Assembly: GCA_964426805.1 (NCBI GenBank)
Contig: CAYRRY010000001.1
Location: 2,504 to 66,503, forward strand
Direction: 5' to 3'
Source of the DNA: an uncultured Candidatus Saccharibacteria bacterium
GTDB lineage: Bacteria; Patescibacteriota; UBA1384; XYA2-FULL-43-10
Length of the DNA: 64,000 nucleotides
Shown here: one piece after another, positions 4,090-39,641 of the stretch
Numbering within the stretch: position 1 is the stretch's first letter
How the letters are laid out: every line of letters starts with the position of its first letter
Program-made: the position numbers and the translations under genes
The notes under the pieces: model-generated
The model's input: only the letters and a program-made list of their open reading frames with translations
What the model was told of the DNA's origin: nothing
Database searches by the model: none

Positions 4090-4640
4090 TTAAGTTTGTA
4101 CGACGCGGGAAGTTGCCCTCCCGCGTCGCTTCGGATCCCGTGATTTGCTGAAAAGAATTGCTATCAGTAAATCACGGTCGTTGTCTGGCCGTCAGCTCAC
4201 CAGCGTAGAGGCCTGGCTCAGACAACTGTTTGCCCCGTGAGGAGTGGGGCACGACCGCGGTTGCCTCATGCGCTGGCTGTTGCCGCACGAATCAGCAACT
4301 TCTTCTGCGTCGCACCCATAGGGTGTCTCTCCCTTCTTGGGTATGTGAGGGGCGTTTGCCACTCACTATCACTGTGGAGATGTTCTCGACAAGTTAAAAC
4401 TATCATAAATCTGTCTCGACATCAACACACAACAAATAAAAAAAGACTCACCTAGAGTCTGAAAATAATAACAATTTAGAGGGGGGCGCGTCGGGTAACG
4501 CGCCCCCCTGCAGCTCAAGCAGATTGACAGCACCTAGATAGTGATTTATCCCTTGCGGGGCCACGCTATTCTAGCGCCATCATTGTGTCCGCCTATTCAC
4601 CACCTTTCGGTGGCGGACTATGTAAGAATATACCCTATTG
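4090..4640. ncRNA. GC-rich, highly structured non-coding island; candidate structured RNA(s) of unknown class
   Basis: No credible ORF. Perfect helices include CGACGCGGGA/TCCCGCGTCG (4101-4128), CCGTGATTT/AAATCACGG, GGGGGGCGCG/CGCGCCCCCC (4481-4508) and CCACC-GAAA-GGTGG, a GNRA-type tetraloop nested in GTCCGCC/GGCGGAC. A minus-strand intrinsic terminator follows at 4434-4460. Confidence 0.35.
4434..4460 (-). terminator. intrinsic terminator on minus strand (hairpin AGACTC-TAGGTG-AGTCT followed by TTTTTTTATTT)
   Basis: Read on the minus strand: agactctaggtgagtctttttttatttg. Confidence 0.6.
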
Positions 4641-20609: not shown

Positions 20610-21326
20610 ATGTATAATGAGAGACATAAAAGAATGAAGAGTATTATAGTCGGGCAGGCACTAGTTGCGATTGGAATTATATTCATCGCCTCCTGCCTTA
20701 TCTTTTACACGATGGGCTACAGGATAAATTTCAAGAACTATACAATAAACAAAATAGGCATTTTGAGCCTAAATTTTGCCGATCATCCAGACAAAATTTC
20801 GATTGATGGCAAGGAGCACAAAAACGGGAATAATTTCTATATCGACCTAACTCCCGGGAACTACGACGTGATAGCCTCCAAAGCGGGGCATTACGATTGG
20901 AATTCTAGCTATTTGGTAAAATCTGGTCTTGTTCGAAAACAGAACGATATTATCTTTATTAAAGAGAACCCAGAGGTTACGGAGACTTTAGATGAAGAGG
21001 TTATAAACAAGCTGAATTTGCCCAATACGAGTCTGATAAGCGAGGACAAGCAGAAGTTAACCAGCAGCGACTATGAGATTTGGGTTAATTCAAAACTAAT
21101 TACGCGTTATTCAGAGCTGGTTTATGGTGTTACATGGTTCCCCGGCAATGACTATATTGCCTTTCAAATCAACGATGAAATAAGAATAATCGATAAATTT
21201 GGTGAAAATGATACCCTTTTGGTAGAACTAGAAAATTCTTCAATAACAAAATTTGCCTTCAAAGGTAACGGACGAGAACTATATTATAGAGACGATTCTA
21301 AGTACTATGTTGCGAAAATACGATAA
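20610..21326 (+). CDS. membrane-anchored PEGA-domain protein (likely start at Met 20634)
   Basis: TM helix, then ISIDGKEHKNG...LTPGNYDVIASKAGHYDW matching the PEGA pattern. Confidence 0.45.
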   Translation: MYNERHKRMKSIIVGQALVAIGIIFIASCLIFYTMGYRINFKNYTINKIGILSLNFADHPDKISIDGKEHKNGNNFYIDLTPGNYDVIASKAGHYDWNSSYLVKSGLVRKQNDIIFIKENPEVTETLDEEVINKLNLPNTSLISEDKQKLTSSDYEIWVNSKLITRYSELVYGVTWFPGNDYIAFQINDEIRIIDKFGENDTLLVELENSSITKFAFKGNGRELYYRDDSKYYVAKIR

Positions 21327-23419: not shown

Positions 23420-24154
23420 CTATCTCTTATAGAATTCTTCGGCTACTATTATCAATCTATTTAGTGCAGTGCCGACCGGTGTGCAAGTCATGAGGCTTAG
23501 AATCCTTTTATCTTCTTGATCGAGCACTGAAAGATCGTTTGGTTTTACGCTCTTTTTCTCAACTACGCTGTAACCGTAAATCACATTATTGAAATTTATA
23601 TATATTTTATCCCCCACTACCAATTTATCGAGTAGCACAAAAGCTTCTTTATATTTACCGTTTGACCAAAAATAGTCGGAAGAGTGACCGGTAATAAATA
23701 CATTGCCCCCTTCTCCCGGCTTTGCTGTGCCATGCAGGTGTATGACACCGTTTTTTAGGTTGCTCTCTGTTTCTGTTGGGGTGTTTGGGACATCCCACAC
23801 TATGGGGGCCTGAACATCTATCTTTTCGATCACGATTGCACCATTTGGAACGGCTGGCACATTTATAATATCATCTGTAGAGTTATGCGATTGGTTTGTT
23901 CCAGAGCCTATAAGTGGCGAATTATCGACTTCCTCTGTTGTTATATTTTCCTTATACCAAAAGTCAAACCTTTTTTTAAAGGTTCCGAAGTTTATGAGCG
24001 CAAATATTATTGAGAATCCAATCACTAAATACAAAACGTAGAGAAAATATCGAAGAACTTTGCGCCCCCCGGTTTCTGTATTAGTTCCATATAAATTTTG
24101 GAGATCTTTTTCTTTGAATTTCATAATTTGGTGCCAGAGGTGGGAGTCTGTCAC
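23420..24154 (-). CDS. sortase-family transpeptidase (likely true start at Met ~24124)
   Basis: TM anchor, ITGHS (His), LSLMTCTP (TLxTC Cys) and a downstream Arg. The extreme N-terminus of the track ORF runs into a tRNA-derived repeat. Confidence 0.75.
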   Translation of the reverse strand: MTDSHLWHQIMKFKEKDLQNLYGTNTETGGRKVLRYFLYVLYLVIGFSIIFALINFGTFKKRFDFWYKENITTEEVDNSPLIGSGTNQSHNSTDDIINVPAVPNGAIVIEKIDVQAPIVWDVPNTPTETESNLKNGVIHLHGTAKPGEGGNVFITGHSSDYFWSNGKYKEAFVLLDKLVVGDKIYINFNNVIYGYSVVEKKSVKPNDLSVLDQEDKRILSLMTCTPVGTALNRLIIVAEEFYKR

Positions 24155-24253
24155 TGGTCAAATTCTGTCGAATTTGCCATCGACCCCGTCTCCCCCGACA
24201 TTTCGGGGTCCGACATTCAACTCTTCTTTAATTTGGTGCCAGAGGTGGGAGTC
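24128..24253. repeat. two tandem 21-24-bp copies of the tRNA-Leu 3' end (TTGGTGCCAGAGGTGGGAGTC) at 24128-24148 and 24233-24253
   Basis: Exact 21-mer matches to tRNA-Leu positions 24336-24356. Copy spacing is 105 and 103 bp. Confidence 0.8.
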
Positions 24254-24336
24254 GTCTACAAATATTTTTCTGTTGAAAAATTTCGCAGACCCGCCTCGGC
24301 TCTCAGTCGAACCTGCGGCATTCTCCTCCATATTTT

Positions 24337-24423
24337 TTGGTGCCAGAGGTGGGAGTCGAACCCACATCACGCGAGCGTGATACGATTTTGAGTCGTACGC
24401 GTATACCAATTCCGCCACTCTGG
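24337..24423 (-). tRNA. tRNA-Leu (anticodon CAA), long variable arm, CCA encoded
   Basis: Hand-folded. Acceptor GCCAGAG/CTCTGGC. Anticodon stem TACGA/TCGTA with loop CTCAAAA. Variable arm CACGC..GCGTG. T-arm GTGGG-TTCGACT-CCCAC. Confidence 0.8.
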
Positions 24424-24534
24424 CTAAATATCAAATAATGTATGGTTAATAACTGATAATTAAGAAACGATGTATTATTGACAATTTCAGCTAAAATTAT
24501 AGCAAATTTTACGTTCTTTGGAAAGTGCTAATAT

Positions 24535-24571
24535 GCTAAAATTTTAAACGCCTCACTCGTGTGAGGCGTTT
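24535..24571. repeat. palindromic repeat copy A (AAACGCCTCAC-tcgt-GTGAGGCGTTT, extended to a 17-bp stem)
   Basis: Shares the core with copies at 56521, 60726 and 62396. Confidence 0.7.
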
Positions 24572-24652
24572 AAAATTCATGATGTTGTGCGAATAAACTA
24601 TTTTAAAATCCTGGAAATCGGTATATAATTGATATATAAAAGGAGGGCGTAA

Positions 24653-26269
24653 ATGCCAGAGGTTTTCAATTTCAACACAAAGCGAACCAAGACGAAGCCT
24701 TTTGCTCTGATTATTCTAGACGGTTGGGGCGTAGCTCCTTCATGGGGTGGAAATGCGATAACGCTTGCAAAAACTAGTTATTTTGACGAACTTATTCGGA
24801 CTTATCCAAATACTACTCTCTCCGCCTCCGGACCAAGCGTTGGTCTTTCTGAAGGTTCCCCGGGAAATTCTGAAGCAGGTCACTTGAATATCGGTGCTGG
24901 CAGGATAGTACATCAAGATTTGCCCCTTATCAATCAAAAAATTGAAAGTGGCGAATTTTTTAATAACAAAACAATGAAGGCCTCTTTGGGGTATTTGAAG
25001 AAATATGGAGGTAAGCTTCATGTTATGGGCCTTCTTTCAAAATCTGGGACACATAGCCATCTGAATCACCTTTATGCTACTCTAAAGTTTTATAAGGAAA
25101 ACGGTGTTACGGATGCATATATTCATCTTTTTTCAGATGGACGTGATTCCGACCCCATGAGCGGGATTGAGATGATCGGAGAAGTACAGAAAAAGATTGA
25201 TGAGTTGGGAATAGGTCGTATTTCATCTATCATGGGTAGATTTTATGCTATGGACAGAGATAATCGTTGGGGACGCACCATACGAGCATACAACACACTT
25301 ACTAAAGGGGAAGCAGAGGTTGCTCAGAACGCAAACCAGGTTTTTTCCCATAGCTATAAGAGAGGCATAACGGACGAATTTATCGAGCCGAGGATTATTA
25401 CAAACAAAATTTCAAATTTTGAGAAGATAGTAGACAAAGATGTTGTTCTGTTATTCAATTTTCGCCCTGACAGAGTTAGGCAATTGACAAAAGCATTTTT
25501 GGCCACAGAGGTAAAACAATTTCCGGATAGAAAAAAACTCAAAAATATTATGATGGTTAGCTTTGTTACATACGAAAGAGAAAACCTCGGGGATAAGGTT
25601 TTTTACCCCGACCCTATTGAAAACCCTATAGCAAAAGTAATTTCCGACAAGGGTTACAAGCAACTTCACATGGCTGAAACAGAAAAATACCCACACGTCA
25701 CCTATTTTATGAACGGTGGCAACGAACAAGCCTATCCAGGAGAAACCAGAAAAATGATTCCGTCACCCAAGGTAAGAACTTACGATTACGCTCCGAAGAT
25801 GAGCGCAGAAAAACTCACAAAACAGCTGAACAGTTTCGTAAAACAGGGGAAGAATCATTTCTATATAGTCAACTATGCGAATCCCGACATGGTTGGCCAT
25901 ACAGGGAACTTGGAGGCAACGATACAAGCTATAAGCTATATAGATACATGTCTAAAATCACTCATACCTGAAATCTTGAAACAGGAAGGCACGGCTTTAA
26001 TATTTGCTGATCACGGAAACGCTGAACAGATGATTAATCCGCAAACTTCAGAACCAGATACGGAGCACACTACCAATCCCGTTCCATTTATTTTAGTAAA
26101 CGAGAAATTGAAAGGAAATGTCGTTCTTCAAAATAATGGCTCATTAACCAATATTGCGCCTACGGCACTTGAGCTTCTGGGAATCGATAAACCAAACGAG
26201 ATGTCTTCAAGGGAAAGTCTAATTCTTGCCAATCCTCGATTTGAACATAAAGGAATTCTAAAATTTTAA
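24653..26269 (+). CDS. gpmI: 2,3-bisphosphoglycerate-independent phosphoglycerate mutase
   Basis: ILDGWG, GNSEAGHLNIGAGR and ADHGN metal/catalytic motifs. 538 aa. Confidence 0.92.
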   Translation: MPEVFNFNTKRTKTKPFALIILDGWGVAPSWGGNAITLAKTSYFDELIRTYPNTTLSASGPSVGLSEGSPGNSEAGHLNIGAGRIVHQDLPLINQKIESGEFFNNKTMKASLGYLKKYGGKLHVMGLLSKSGTHSHLNHLYATLKFYKENGVTDAYIHLFSDGRDSDPMSGIEMIGEVQKKIDELGIGRISSIMGRFYAMDRDNRWGRTIRAYNTLTKGEAEVAQNANQVFSHSYKRGITDEFIEPRIITNKISNFEKIVDKDVVLLFNFRPDRVRQLTKAFLATEVKQFPDRKKLKNIMMVSFVTYERENLGDKVFYPDPIENPIAKVISDKGYKQLHMAETEKYPHVTYFMNGGNEQAYPGETRKMIPSPKVRTYDYAPKMSAEKLTKQLNSFVKQGKNHFYIVNYANPDMVGHTGNLEATIQAISYIDTCLKSLIPEILKQEGTALIFADHGNAEQMINPQTSEPDTEHTTNPVPFILVNEKLKGNVVLQNNGSLTNIAPTALELLGIDKPNEMSSRESLILANPRFEHKGILKF

Positions 26270-26270
26270 G

Positions 26271-27815
26271 ATGAATAAGTTGTCTAATTATCGCAAAAAA
26301 GTAGCCCTATTAGTTGTTGAGGGATTGTCGGCCAAGACAAAAAGAGAGGGCTCTCCCCTACTTCCTTCAAACTCGGGCAATATCGAGGTGCTTCTTTCGG
26401 GGTATGAAAAGAAGATTCTAAAAACTTTGGACCCAACAATTGATAGTAACATACTAGAAACAGACATTGTTTCGCTGTACAATACGTTCTCTTCTTCAAA
26501 ACGAGCTCTAAGTGAGGTTGCTAATTTTAAACATGATAAAAATGATTTCAAGAGTAAATTGGAAAAAATCAGTCACAACTGTAAAAATCACTCCTCTTCA
26601 ATGCATTTAGCCATGGTGTACTCTAAAAATCCAAAAGTATTTAACCAAAATATTTTCGACGAAATTATTGCTGGACTTAAGGAAATTGGGTTAAATAGGA
26701 TTTATCTTCATCTGTTTTGCGACTTCACTATGAAATCATCTGAAGTTAGAAATTTTGTTGAGCGATACAACAAGTTAGATGGAGCAAAGTTTCAGATTTC
26801 CTCAGTTTCGGGCACCTCATCCCTTCTGAGCCATAAGCAAAAAAATCAACTAGAAATATACAAATCGATGGTATTTGGAGCCAGTCATCAGATTATGGAT
26901 ATTTCACAGATTGATGATGGGGATTTTTCGCATCTACTCCCACACACGTTTATAAAAAATAGAAAACCGATTGGCATGATAAGCGATTTTGACACGATTC
27001 TATTTTTAAATTCAAGCTCTGAAATTTTCTTCGAACAGATTCATCTCTTAAATAAAAAAAGTAAATCTTTCCGTGGAGACAAAAACCTTTTTATGATAAA
27101 TACTGTATGTTTGACTAAAATTTATCGAAATATTGATGGCAAGGGAGTCGAATACCTAATTAGTAATATGCTTTACCAAAAAAATCTATTTTCAACTTTG
27201 TCTGAATATGGATTAAGCCAGATTAAAATATTTAATGCAGAAGATAGGGACCAGTATCTAGAAGGATATAATGGTTCCAACGAGATATTTGAAAACGAAG
27301 ATGTTGCGTTAATAGAGAGCGAAGGCAACCATGTCCTCTCCGCTCGTCACATCATACAAACATTTATTGAATCTATTGAAAATGATGAGCATGATCTTGT
27401 TTTTGCCTCAATGAACAGTTTAGTCAAATGTTCGTATGATACGGACTTAAAAGATTCGATATCTGTAGTCGACGAAATAAATCAAGCTATACCAGAGATA
27501 ATTAGAATATGCGCAAAAAATAAATTGACCTTTGTTTTTGCCTCGCCTTTTGGCGGTTCAGACTCCTTTTCCTCCGGCGACAAGCAAGGTCAAGAAAAGA
27601 ATTTTGAAAATATCAAACTAACCACTGTGCCTCTGGTGCTTGTAAATAACTTATTTAAAAAAGAGACTAGTAATCAGTTCATGATAAACAATTCCAATTT
27701 AATTGATATAATAAGTAGTAAGTCTAGTGTTTATGATTTTGCCCCGACTATTTTGGATTTATTTAATATTGAAAAGCCGGAAGGTTTTCAGGGAAGAAGC
27801 TTAACAAATGTCTAA
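26271..27815 (+). CDS. divergent iPGM-like paralog with metal-binding and catalytic motifs degenerated (putative pseudoenzyme or altered specificity)
   Basis: N- and C-terminal homology to gpmI (KVALLVVEGLS vs PFALIILDGWG; FAPTILDLFNIEKPEGFQGRS vs IAPTALELLGIDKPNEMSSRES). ADHGN is replaced by ASPFGG and the His of MVGHTG is lost. Confidence 0.6.
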   Translation: MNKLSNYRKKVALLVVEGLSAKTKREGSPLLPSNSGNIEVLLSGYEKKILKTLDPTIDSNILETDIVSLYNTFSSSKRALSEVANFKHDKNDFKSKLEKISHNCKNHSSSMHLAMVYSKNPKVFNQNIFDEIIAGLKEIGLNRIYLHLFCDFTMKSSEVRNFVERYNKLDGAKFQISSVSGTSSLLSHKQKNQLEIYKSMVFGASHQIMDISQIDDGDFSHLLPHTFIKNRKPIGMISDFDTILFLNSSSEIFFEQIHLLNKKSKSFRGDKNLFMINTVCLTKIYRNIDGKGVEYLISNMLYQKNLFSTLSEYGLSQIKIFNAEDRDQYLEGYNGSNEIFENEDVALIESEGNHVLSARHIIQTFIESIENDEHDLVFASMNSLVKCSYDTDLKDSISVVDEINQAIPEIIRICAKNKLTFVFASPFGGSDSFSSGDKQGQEKNFENIKLTTVPLVLVNNLFKKETSNQFMINNSNLIDIISSKSSVYDFAPTILDLFNIEKPEGFQGRSLTNV

Positions 27816-36740: not shown

Positions 36741-39641
36741 ATGAAATACGACTTCAAATCAATCGAGAAAAAATGGCAAGAACGTTGGGAGAAGTCGGAT
36801 GAGTTTATGGCTTCCGACGACTCAGACAAACCAAAACACTATAATTTGGTAGAATTTCCCTATCCATCTGGTGCTGGTCTCCATGTGGGGCACGTTATGG
36901 GTTATGGCGCCTCAGACGCTTACTGTCGCATGAAACGGATGCAGGGTTACAATGTGCTTTTCCCAATTGGTTGGGACTCTTTTGGTTTGCCCACCGAAAA
37001 CTACGCCATAAAGAACAAGATTCACCCACGAGTAGCTACCGACCAAAATATAAAAACATTTATTAAACAGTTTAAATCGCTAGGCATCTCTTTCGATTGG
37101 TCGAGAGAAATCGATACAACTGATCCAAATTATTATAAGTGGACTCAGTGGATATTTTTGAAGTTCTACAAACACGCAATAGTCGATGGAAAATTAGTTG
37201 AAGTAGCTGACGACGATACTATAACTCCCAGATTAGCTTATCAAGATGAGATAGCAATCAATTGGTGTCCGTCATGCAAAATAGGTTTAGCAAATGAAGA
37301 AGTAGTAAACGGCAAATGTGAACGATGCGGAGAAGAAACATCTAAAAAAATGCAGAAACAGTGGATGCTTCGCATAACCGACTATGCTGATAGGCTTATA
37401 GATGACCTTGATACCGTTGATTATCTAGAAAGGATAAGAACCCAACAAATAAATTGGATCGGGCGATCCGAAGGTACAGATGTGGACTTTAAGCTAAAAG
37501 GTTTAGATCAAATCATAAAGGTTTTTACTACGAGAGTAGATACCCTTTTCGGTTGTACATATATGGTACTTTCGCCAGAACATACACTTGTTAAAAAGCT
37601 GGACTCTTCAATAAAGAATGCTAATGAAGTTAACAAATATATCGAAAATGCTAAAAATAAATCTGATTTAGAACGAACAGAGCTTCAAAAAGAAAAAACT
37701 GGCGTACGGCTCGAGGGGATAACAGCCATCAACCCTATCAACAATGAAGAGGTTGAGGTTTGGATCGCAGACTACGTTCTAGCTAACTACGGTACAGGGG
37801 CTGTTATGGCTGTGCCGGCCCATGATGACCGTGATTATGAATTCGCCAAGAAATATGGGATTGAAATAAAAAACGTGATTATCCCAAAAGTAGTCGACAA
37901 ACACGATCCGCCAATGGAAGGTGTAGAAACAATTTATAGATTTTCGATACAAGCTATCATTATAAATCAGAAAGATGGGAAAGTCTTAACTCTCAAATGG
38001 AAAAAACTCCCGTGGAGAACATTTATCACTGGTGGTATAGACGAAGGCGAAGATGTTGTAGAGGGGGCTAAGCGAGAAATATTAGAAGAGACTGGGTACA
38101 AAAACATTAAATTCATTCGAAATCTTGGTGAAATCGTAGAGTCGCATTTTTATGCTAATCATAAAGAAGAAAACCGCAAGGCTCATTTTCAGGGTATACT
38201 TTTTGAACTAGAAAACGATGAACGAGATGAGGTGTCTAGCAAAGAAAAAGAAATCCATGAGGCCGAATGGATGACCTGGGAAGATTTGAACAATGACAAA
38301 CAGATTAAATGCGCTGAGTATGACATCTGGTTGGACAGAATTAATAATGACGAACACGCCTTTATTGAATACGGTGTTTTAATAAATAGCGGTAAGTTTG
38401 ATGGACTGGAGTCAAAAGAAGCAATTCAAAAAATCACACAAAAGATTAAAGACAATAATAGTGGAGATTTTGCAAAGAACTTCAAGCTTCGAGATTGGAT
38501 TTTTTCGCGACAGCACTACTGGGGTGAACCGATACCTATCATACATTGTAATACTTGTGGCACTTTACCTATGGACGAAAAGAACCTGCCTCTAGAATTG
38601 CCAGTAGTTGAGAACTATCAGCCCACAGACACTGGCGAGTCACCCTTGGCAAAAATCAAAGAATGGGTCAACGTTAAATGTCCTAAATGTGGAGCTGAAG
38701 CCAAAAGAGAAACCGACACAATGCCAAATTGGGCTGGCTCTTCTTGGTATTTCTTAAGATATTGCGACCCTAAGAATAATGATGAGTTTATATCTAAAAC
38801 AATGCTTGCTAGTTGGATGCCCGTAGATCTTTATAATGGTGGCATGGAACACACAACACTTCATCTTCTATATTCGAGGTTTTGGCACAAGTTTTTATAT
38901 GACTTAGGAGCCGTAAATACAGCTGAGCCTTACAAAAAGAGAATAGCTCATGGCATTATCCTTGGTACTGACAACCAGAAAATGAGCAAATCAAAGGGAA
39001 ACGTAATAAGCCCCGATGATATAGTTGAGCAATACGGAGCGGACACTCTTCGAGCCTATATTATGTTTATTGGACCATATGATCAAGAATCCGCTTGGAA
39101 TATGGACGGAGTTGCTGGTGTTAACAGGTTTTTGAATAAAGTAGTAAATAATTTTGAGAAAGTTGACGGTAATCACAAAGATGACGACAATACTATAAAG
39201 TTGATAAACAAGACAGTAAAAGGTGTCGGCGAGGACATTGAGAGGTATTATCTAAACACCTACATTGCCAAGTTAATGGAGTTCAACAACCATCTCTTCA
39301 CACTCGACAAAATATCTAGTCTAACATTAACTACATTTGCAAAGCTTCTCTCTCCTGCTTGCCCCCACCTAGCATCAGAAATGTTAGAGAGATTGAAGTC
39401 AGAGGACAATCTATGGCCAGAGTACGACAAATTAAAAATAATAGATAGCGAAATTACACTTGTTGTTCAGATAAATGGCAAAGTTCGTGACAAGATGACA
39501 GTACCCGCCAACATAAGCAAAGATGAGATGCTCAAAATTTCCAAAGAGAGCAAAATCGTTCAAAAATGGACAAAGAACAAGGAGATAATCAAAGAGATAG
39601 TCGTCCTAGGAAAGCTTGTTAACATTGTTATCAAGGGTTAG
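36741..39641 (+). CDS. leuS: leucyl-tRNA synthetase with an inserted NUDIX hydrolase domain (~37885-38367)
   Basis: HVGH, zinc knuckle WCPSCKIGLANEEVVNGKCERCG, CP1 editing domain (TTRVDTLFG...GTGAVMAVPAHDDRDYEFAKKYG), KMSKS. Between the editing domain and the EYGVLINSGKFDGL region lies GGIDEGEDVVEGAKREILEETGY, a perfect Nudix box. Confidence 0.9.
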   Translation: MKYDFKSIEKKWQERWEKSDEFMASDDSDKPKHYNLVEFPYPSGAGLHVGHVMGYGASDAYCRMKRMQGYNVLFPIGWDSFGLPTENYAIKNKIHPRVATDQNIKTFIKQFKSLGISFDWSREIDTTDPNYYKWTQWIFLKFYKHAIVDGKLVEVADDDTITPRLAYQDEIAINWCPSCKIGLANEEVVNGKCERCGEETSKKMQKQWMLRITDYADRLIDDLDTVDYLERIRTQQINWIGRSEGTDVDFKLKGLDQIIKVFTTRVDTLFGCTYMVLSPEHTLVKKLDSSIKNANEVNKYIENAKNKSDLERTELQKEKTGVRLEGITAINPINNEEVEVWIADYVLANYGTGAVMAVPAHDDRDYEFAKKYGIEIKNVIIPKVVDKHDPPMEGVETIYRFSIQAIIINQKDGKVLTLKWKKLPWRTFITGGIDEGEDVVEGAKREILEETGYKNIKFIRNLGEIVESHFYANHKEENRKAHFQGILFELENDERDEVSSKEKEIHEAEWMTWEDLNNDKQIKCAEYDIWLDRINNDEHAFIEYGVLINSGKFDGLESKEAIQKITQKIKDNNSGDFAKNFKLRDWIFSRQHYWGEPIPIIHCNTCGTLPMDEKNLPLELPVVENYQPTDTGESPLAKIKEWVNVKCPKCGAEAKRETDTMPNWAGSSWYFLRYCDPKNNDEFISKTMLASWMPVDLYNGGMEHTTLHLLYSRFWHKFLYDLGAVNTAEPYKKRIAHGIILGTDNQKMSKSKGNVISPDDIVEQYGADTLRAYIMFIGPYDQESAWNMDGVAGVNRFLNKVVNNFEKVDGNHKDDDNTIKLINKTVKGVGEDIERYYLNTYIAKLMEFNNHLFTLDKISSLTLTTFAKLLSPACPHLASEMLERLKSEDNLWPEYDKLKIIDSEITLVVQINGKVRDKMTVPANISKDEMLKISKESKIVQKWTKNKEIIKEIVVLGKLVNIVIKG

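Follow-up and report, generated by a model that had tools for sequence, protein, structure and literature searches.

Structured modules ending in copies of the tRNA-Leu(CAA) 3' end between the tRNA and a sortase gene of a Candidatus Saccharibacteria bacterium

Introduction

The DNA analysed here is a 64-kb stretch (the window, to which all coordinates refer) from an uncultured Candidatus Saccharibacteria bacterium. It carries a tRNA-Leu(CAA) gene and, downstream on the same strand, a sortase gene. The tRNA gene (24338..24424, minus strand) is 87 nt long with an encoded CCA and is reported by ARAGORN and by the Rfam tRNA model (60.6 bits). The sortase gene (23420..24124, minus strand) encodes 234 aa with a PF04203 match (E 2e-26) and has neither a Shine-Dalgarno motif nor a promoter-like site of its own. 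Between the two genes lie two exact copies of the tRNA's own 3' end, each preceded by a filler of 83 or 84 nt. Orphan tRNA 3' ends are usually taken as dead integration footprints. Here, the footprints and the intervening DNA behave as conserved structured units, built like the tyrT/rtT repeats of Escherichia coli and set in what is probably a tRNA-mRNA operon of a reduced-genome bacterium of the candidate phyla radiation (CPR) type. The kind of locus is already known, either as tyrT/rtT-type trailer repeats or as tandem att arrays; the new part is the family of conserved structured modules between the repeated tRNA ends.

The repeated tRNA 3' end

The 21-mer GACTCCCACCTCTGGCACCAA, referred to as the core, occurs exactly three times in the window, at 24357-24337, 24253-24233 and 24148-24128, always on the minus strand and with start-to-start distances of 104 and 105 nt. 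Core copy 1 (24337..24357) consists of the last 20 nt of the tRNA plus one A, that is, T-loop GACT, the T-stem 3' strand CCCAC, the acceptor 3' strand CTCTGGC, ACCA and the additional A. Copies 2 (24233..24253) and 3 (24128..24148) are orphan tRNA 3' ends that match it exactly. The recurrence of the last 21 nt of the tRNA at a spacing of ~104 bp had been reported in a preliminary description of this DNA and is confirmed; the identity is even longer, reaching 23 nt for copies 1 and 2 and 25 nt for copies 2 and 3 (the 21-mer plus ATTA). The last copy had also been placed correctly against the sortase gene: copy 3 ends 3 nt before the ATG at 24124, a start backed by N-terminal homology with relatives. 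The distal copy that was then envisaged as the far boundary of an island does not exist in the 64 kb at up to 3 mismatches (100 shuffles gave none either).

Neither fillers nor orphans contain a cloverleaf according to ARAGORN and the Rfam tRNA model, which report the genuine tRNA-Leu alone, and cmscan of 23900-24700 (E up to 10) gives no Rfam match in the fillers. Among 31 tRNAs surveyed in 1.1 Mb of fetched loci, this tRNA is the only one with its own 3' end repeated downstream, so repeated 3' ends are not general for the tRNAs of these genomes. A CRISPR-like array was considered and rejected: there are only three repeats, these are copies of the tRNA end, the "spacers" share homology and no cas genes were found.

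The tRNA-sortase junction in relatives

The locus was compared with eight sortase clusters, 67-100% identical to the window sortase protein, and with their contigs. The order of a divergent iPGM gene, tRNA-Leu(CAA) and a sortase gene on the tRNA strand is kept even in the distant relatives L001, L002 and L109; of three more distant sortase loci, two have no adjoining tRNA. In the most compact junctions, the tRNA stands directly before the sortase gene, with 5 nt between CCA and ATG in L082-L085 (77% amino acid identity of the sortase; CACCA-TAACT-ATG) and 4 nt in L092/L093 (70%; CACCA-TATT-ATG) and L094-L097 (67%; CACCA-CATT-ATG). The two genes are separated by a 58-nt spacer in L086-L088 (74%). 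In L089 and L090 (71%), two independent assemblies, the tRNA end is followed by a 105-nt filler, an exact orphan core and a 56-nt spacer that is 79% identical to the post-tRNA spacer of L086. Finally, the closest relative, L081 (78%), has a visibly higher-GC insert of 650 nt (2085-2736) with an ORF (open reading frame) of ~115 codons and no orphan core. Five close relatives show five different tRNA-sortase junctions, which bears out the earlier view of the site as a hotspot. Conservation of the triplicated arrangement in related genomes had been named as evidence against integration; the relatives vary instead, with no unit in L082-L085 and in L086-L088, one in L089/L090 and two in the window.

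The window junction at copy 3, CACCA-AATT-ATG, matches the tRNA-ATG junctions CACCA-TATT-ATG and CACCA-CATT-ATG of relatives. Because an intact tRNA stands 4-5 nt before the sortase ATG in relatives, core copy 3 marks, by this comparison, the ancestral position of the tRNA end; ~209 nt were added at the tRNA 3' end, with the tRNA regenerated.

Could the tandem arrangement be an assembly artefact that joins strain variants? The L089 and L090 contigs are broken at an identical base of the tRNA-Leu gene, shortly before the repeated core, which is consistent with repeat- or strain-induced assembly breaks and indicates that the region is hard to assemble. However, the repeat of 21-25 nt is shorter than usual assembly k-mers, so that its junctions must be read-supported if assemblers behaved here as they generally do, and the two independent assemblies agree on the one-unit structure. 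An artefact is barely credible.

Architecture and conservation of the modules

Two modules can be delimited on the minus strand, U1 (24337..24233) and U2 (24232..24128), each made of a filler and a core-type end. Filler F1 of U1 (24254..24336, 83 nt) comprises a hairpin A (24313-24298), the core-complementary segment GAGGCGGG (24297-24290) and a long hairpin B (24289-24255) adjoining core copy 2. Filler F2 of U2 (24149..24232, 84 nt) has hairpin A at 24208-24193, the core-complementary GAGACGGGGTC at 24192-24182 and hairpin B at 24178-24156. The presence of hairpins had been noted before, in fillers that were then described as unrelated. The fillers are in fact homologous, with covarying hairpins: U1, U2 and the L089 unit align without gaps and in register over columns 1-69 (MAFFT), and the global alignment of F1 with F2 was outscored by only 15 of 2000 shuffles. 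F1 and F2 are 58.8% identical and their cores 100%. These alignments identify F1 and F2 as two diverged members of one structured module family.

With no structure supplied, RNAalifold predicts 30 pairs for U1, U2 and the L089 unit, and 9 of these show compensatory changes. The stem of hairpin A, 5 bp long and closed by a 6-nt loop, reads GGUUC/GAGCC in U1, AGUUC/GAACU in L089 and CCCCG/CGGGG in U2. All five of its pairs are altered on both sides. The predicted structure also holds a lower stem beneath hairpin A, while hairpin B has the loop RACA and a closing stem that stops one base short of the orphan core. In the structure that we specified, 96% of cells are paired, versus 44-58% with the partners slid, and none of 500 shuffles reached the covariation score, a statistic that rests, like the other covariation figures, on these three sequences. 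Single-sequence folds give z-scores of -3.3 to -3.9. The idea that the fillers are decayed copies of the whole tRNA was rejected, since the one 9-mer common to F1 and the tRNA (GGTTCGACT) was equalled in 213 of 1000 shuffles and is not kept in L089.

Each module also contains a candidate 21-codon ORF read from the sequence: MPQVRLRAEAGLRNFSTEKYL in U1 (24256..24321, minus strand), with GGAGGAG upstream, and MSDPEMSGETGSMANSTEFDQ in U2 (24151..24216, minus strand). The modules might then be genes for small proteins or leader peptides, like tpr, the ORF annotated in an E. coli tyrT unit. Both window modules place the AUG at module positions 17-19 and the stop at 80-82. Against this, the window and L089 differ by 5 non-synonymous and 2 synonymous changes, the L089 ORF extends to 49 codons, the gap between GGAGG and AUG is only 3 nt, and the changes compensate RNA/DNA pairing and not a peptide. 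A coding role is highly improbable. The ORFs that read through the repeats, dismissed as artefactual from the outset, have no Pfam match.

How well are the modules conserved? F1 and the L089 filler are 84.3% identical, compared with 72.1% for the sortase coding sequence and 46.6% for sortase third codon positions between the same two genomes, and the orphan cores are identical at 20 of 20 positions in both window orphans and the L089 orphan. With silent sites so diverged, neutrally inherited 20-nt orphans would not stay identical. It is possible that modules and orphans are under selection, that they are repaired by gene conversion or that they were inserted after the genomes diverged. Covariation, together with conservation far above the silent-site level, argues that constraint maintains both hairpins, several blocks of sequence and the orphan ends, and that the modules are not inert scars.

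The duplicated ends had first been interpreted as att scars of integrative elements, and part of that interpretation stands: the displaced and duplicated tRNA 3' ends are of att-core type. The part that does not is the decay, given that the third member of the family is 84% identical where sortase third positions have dropped to 47%. In its full form, this explanation has two larger elements integrated in tandem at the tRNA 3' end and then deleted down to ~83 nt each, with no present function. Direct repeats of a tRNA 3' end are its classic signature, and tRNA-Leu(CAA) is variable in relatives, with the 650-nt higher-GC, ORF-bearing insert of L081 and a GIY-YIG insertion in L082-L085 (see below). 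It is, however, implausible that two independent deletions left 83 and 84 nt with equal architecture. The fillers are homologous with 9 compensatory pair changes, the conservation of F1 and of the orphans exceeds what inert DNA would keep, and neither an integrase fragment nor cargo was found. The inert-scar explanation appears largely refuted by covariation and conservation, and we regard it as quite unlikely.

Alternatively, the array may have arisen by local tandem duplication, through unequal crossing-over or slippage between tRNA 3' ends, as has been proposed for the tyrT repeats, with fillers that diverged and cores held identical by gene conversion from the tRNA. The regular period of 104/105 nt and the single architecture of both units would fit, and arrays of this kind do exist, as the tyrT repeats of E. 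coli demonstrate. The contrast between units that are 59% identical and cores that are 100% identical is harder to accommodate, as conversion over a tract of 21-25 nt with sharp edges is unlikely. L089 has one F1-type unit only, and duplication cannot yield a window-type orphan beside a different resident allele, the situation found in L102 (below). This origin is very unlikely.

tRNA-Leu(CAA) as a recurrent recombination target

A scan of metagenome contigs for orphan cores yielded one real case, L102, and two chance matches in high-GC coding DNA (L100 and L101). L102 (reverse complement, ~547-802) carries a distinct, internally consistent tRNA-Leu(CAA) allele with the 3' end GACTCCCTCCTTCGGCACCA, followed by a 150-nt GC-rich filler and an orphan. 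That orphan is identical to the window-type 20-mer, while the resident tRNA end differs from it at 3 positions. In L089, similarly, the tRNA-internal core copy differs at one T-loop base where the orphan has the window-type base. A further orphan occurs in L109 (1310-1437), where tRNA-Leu(CAA) is followed by a 26-nt hairpin and a sequence that matches the Berkelbacteria-type L002 allele at 14 of 15 positions; by our rough estimate, ~0.001 such matches would be expected there by chance. The four window-type orphans share one start, GACT in mid T-loop. The pattern is compatible with site-specific recombination in which the crossover lies towards the CCA end and the insert brings its own core. 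The foreign-allele orphans of L102 and L109 suggest that tRNA-Leu-associated DNA is exchanged between lineages. Since neither L102 nor L109 has a filler related to the F1/F2 family, orphans arise by a process that extends beyond the module.

The tRNA appears to have been disturbed on its 5' side as well. In L082 (4596-4995) and also in L083-L085, a displaced and degenerate tRNA-Leu 5' half, ending in the anticodon loop (..ACGACTCAAAAT), lies upstream of the intact tRNA-Leu(CAA). A complete GIY-YIG gene of 83 aa (PF01541, E 3e-13) begins with an ATG that overlaps the displaced anticodon loop, and its stop lies 5 nt ahead of the intact tRNA. In L086/L087 (4657-4942), the GIY-YIG gene has decayed to ~105 nt, and the displaced tRNA half holds two GC-rich hairpin insertions. 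It looks as if a nuclease gene had inserted into the anticodon loop and supplied a new 5' part for the tRNA. Own- and foreign-allele orphans, the displaced 5' half with its GIY-YIG gene and the foreign 650-nt insert together mark tRNA-Leu(CAA) as a recurrent recombination target in these bacteria.

Integrase genes, which had been suggested as something to look for on the contig, were not found: no integrase, recombinase, transposase or resolvase was detected by Pfam in the 64 kb among the scanned ORFs of 150 aa or more. The core has no match in viral or phage contigs, and a 17-mer of F1 has two chance matches there, inside clamp-loader genes. Among the features by which integrative elements are recognized, flanking direct repeats of the tRNA 3' end and empty and occupied sites in relatives are present, and a recombinase inside or adjacent to the units is absent.

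Tandem att arrays are the closest parallel on this side. In Dehalococcoides, islands at ssrA are flanked by 20-bp repeats, insert in mid T-loop and occur in tandem, some without an integrase, and a conserved element-side sequence lies by the repeat (PMC3146451). The window pattern also resembles the model of accretion and of cis-mobilizable elements (CIMEs) (PMC5704250). With the Dehalococcoides islands and with ICESt1-type accretion the locus shares direct repeats of ~20 bp that copy the 3' end of an RNA gene from the T-loop onwards, several repeats in tandem, units without a recombinase, strain-variable occupancy and a conserved element-side sequence beside the repeat. It differs from them in units of ~105 bp without any gene, as opposed to kilobases, in having no integrase found in 64 kb and in the RNA-like structure conserved in its fillers.

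The units may thus be miniature, non-autonomous, CIME-like integrative elements, each a ~105-bp filler and core with an attP-like core, mobilized by a recombinase encoded elsewhere; hairpins and conserved blocks would then be functional parts of the element, such as recombinase or accessory sites. Their presence or absence among close relatives is in keeping with this, as is the identical boundary of all four window-type orphans, a kind of position at which the Dehalococcoides islands also insert, some of these in tandem without an integrase and read as cis-mobilizable (PMC3146451; PMC5704250). The core moreover seems to travel with the insert, judging from the window-type orphans beside differing tRNA ends in L102 and L089 and from the foreign-allele orphan of L109, and it has stayed exact although the fillers diverged to 59% identity. 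On the other side stand the missing recombinase in the window and the lack of core-bearing viral contigs; no module member is known at another site, and the fillers of L102 and L109 are unrelated. The 84% identity between window and L089 agrees less well with recent transfer than with prolonged vertical descent under selection. A ~105-bp circle is, in addition, a poor substrate for site-specific recombination. Mobile mini-elements are an unlikely though serious explanation; if mobile, the units would be much smaller than any other tRNA-targeting integrative unit known.

The same isoacceptor is a known target elsewhere, since P4-like phages and pathogenicity islands integrate at leuX, the enterobacterial tRNA-Leu(CAA) gene. 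There too, the 3'-end core is duplicated, but the elements are large and bear an integrase, and nothing of that kind is present here.

The tyrT/rtT parallel and a possible role in the transcript

Trailer repeats of the E. coli tyrT-tyrV operon, 178 bp x 3.14, were reportedly described by Egan and Landy in 1978 and by Rossi in 1981. In E. coli K-12 (locus L103, NC_000913 1286000-1288500), three exact copies of the 19-nt 3' end of tRNA-Tyr follow tyrV at a spacing of 178 nt, and another copy stands between tyrT and tyrV. The 3' end of RttR, an annotated small RNA of 171 nt that includes the ORF tpr, coincides exactly with the first orphan CCA. Each 178-bp tyrT unit also holds GGGGAAGGAU, a segment that shares bases with the beginning of tpr and has complementarity to the orphan end of tRNA-Tyr (equalled in 2 of 1000 shuffles, p=0.002). 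According to PMC3318445, which cites Bosl and Kersten 1991, rttR is encoded by one repeat unit of the tyrT operon, and a 2024 preprint credits RttR with a part in transcript processing and in the stringent response, by an unknown mode of action.

In both loci, tandem units thus follow a tRNA, and each unit contains a small ORF and an orphan-complementary segment and closes with an exact copy of the last 19-21 nt of that tRNA, including CCA. They differ in sequence, with no similarity here to tyrT/rtT or to the Rfam RtT family (cmscan as above), and in unit length (~105 versus 178 nt). By eye, the E. coli units hardly differ from one another, whereas the window units are 59% identical with conserved structure. 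Unlike the E. coli repeats, the window array stands directly before a co-oriented protein gene, and its host is of CPR type.

On the minus strand between the iPGM and sortase genes, the sole strong promoter-like site (TTTCCA, 17 nt, TG-TATAAT; 24496..24524) lies upstream of the tRNA, and modules U1 and U2 contain no terminator-like site. Since there is a single promoter-like site 5' of the tRNA and nothing resembling a terminator in the modules, the sortase gene is probably co-transcribed with tRNA-Leu(CAA).

We tentatively favour a reading in which the units are retained, structured, rtT-like modules inside a tRNA-Leu(CAA)-sortase transcription unit, and we put it a little short of an even chance. 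The locus holds two diverged members of a family of ~84-nt structured modules, each ending in a perfect copy of the last 20-21 nt of the tRNA. Each insertion at the tRNA 3' end restored an intact tRNA, and the ancestral end stayed beside the sortase ATG. The modules would be transcribed both as trailer of the tRNA and as leader of the sortase. The core-complementary filler segment may pair with the orphan core as an "anti-core", a suggestion from sequence complementarity, and orphan ends paired in this way may function as stop signals or as signals for tRNA-like 3' processing. Each module could then give rise to a small RNA with a CCA tail, leaving the sortase mRNA with a 5' end a few nt ahead of its ATG. 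Such processing is modelled on what is reported for the rtT RNA (RttR) of the tyrT operon. An origin by recombination at an att-like core and a present role as an RNA module are mutually compatible.

Several observations weigh against such a role. The modules are dispensable, as the close relatives L082-L088 do without them, and the identical cores could also be explained by recent insertion or by gene conversion. Compared with dinucleotide shuffles, the complementarity between filler and core is marginal (p=0.055 for U1, 0.031 for U2 and 0.30 for L089), and the pairs that involve the core are invariant and so lend no covariation support to the pairing. The Rfam tRNA model, the RtT family and ARAGORN do not class the modules as tRNA-like or RtT-like. 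A search of the window and of 24 related loci (229 kb) with a covariance model brought up no additional member, and the known family amounts to three members at one site in two lineages. Lastly, the absence of a Shine-Dalgarno motif from the sortase gene is not unusual (27 of 41 window genes lack one), so that the gene needs no special 5'-end processing.

A bolder and doubtful extension is that the units form an undescribed class of tRNA-minihelix mimics. These would have spread by recombination at tRNA-Leu(CAA) and been retained because the tRNA-end processing machinery cuts or trims there, freeing small CCA-tailed RNAs, punctuating the tRNA-mRNA co-transcript and setting the 5' end of the sortase mRNA. 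If the modules are processed RNAs, mimicry of a tRNA end would be a reusable form of transcript punctuation. If the extension is true as well, tRNA-minihelix mimics would be a bacterial counterpart of tRNA punctuation and would offer a general rationale for the 45-year-old tyrT/rtT repeats of E. coli.

Genomic surroundings

The window has a G+C content of ~39% and a housekeeping gene content. Neighbouring genes encode iPGM, a second iPGM-like protein, PTAC, acetate kinase, MreB, a MurA-like protein, aminoacyl-tRNA synthetases, SecY and others. In a collection of species-representative genomes, the best match of iPGM (53% identity) comes from a metagenome-assembled genome labelled Saccharibacteria, and further matches come from Berkelbacteria and Parcubacteria. 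On account of these iPGM relatives, the host organism is placed, by sequence, as CPR/Patescibacteria-like.

Translation starts in the window are often unconventional. GGAG, GAGG or AGGA occurs at -20 to -4 in only 14 of the 41 window genes that start with ATG, and an A/T-rich TATAAT-like box lies just upstream of the gene starts at 20610 and 35945, which suggests that initiation independent of Shine-Dalgarno motifs, or leaderless initiation, is widespread in this genome. In L081, a TGGTATAAT box lies 7 nt before the sortase ATG and resembles a leaderless start.

The palindromic repeat previously seen on the other side of the tRNA is present at 24540-24577, between the divergent promoter-like sites of iPGM and the tRNA, and is a perfect palindrome with 17-bp arms (AATTTTAAACGCCTCAC/GTGAGGCGTTTAAAATT). 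The window has no second copy in this form at up to 3 mismatches; an imperfect version occurs in the equivalent iPGM-tRNA intergenic region of L082 (~4474-4510). The two iPGM-like genes adjoin each other on the plus strand (24653-26269 and 26271-27815). The second matches the Metalloenzyme and iPGM_N families weakly, as a divergent paralogue would, and the pair is retained in the relatives L082, L086 and L091. Finally, the leucyl-tRNA synthetase (36741-39641, plus strand, 966 aa) has an unusual architecture, with a NUDIX domain (PF00293, aa 405-518, E 2e-17) inserted directly after the editing domain.

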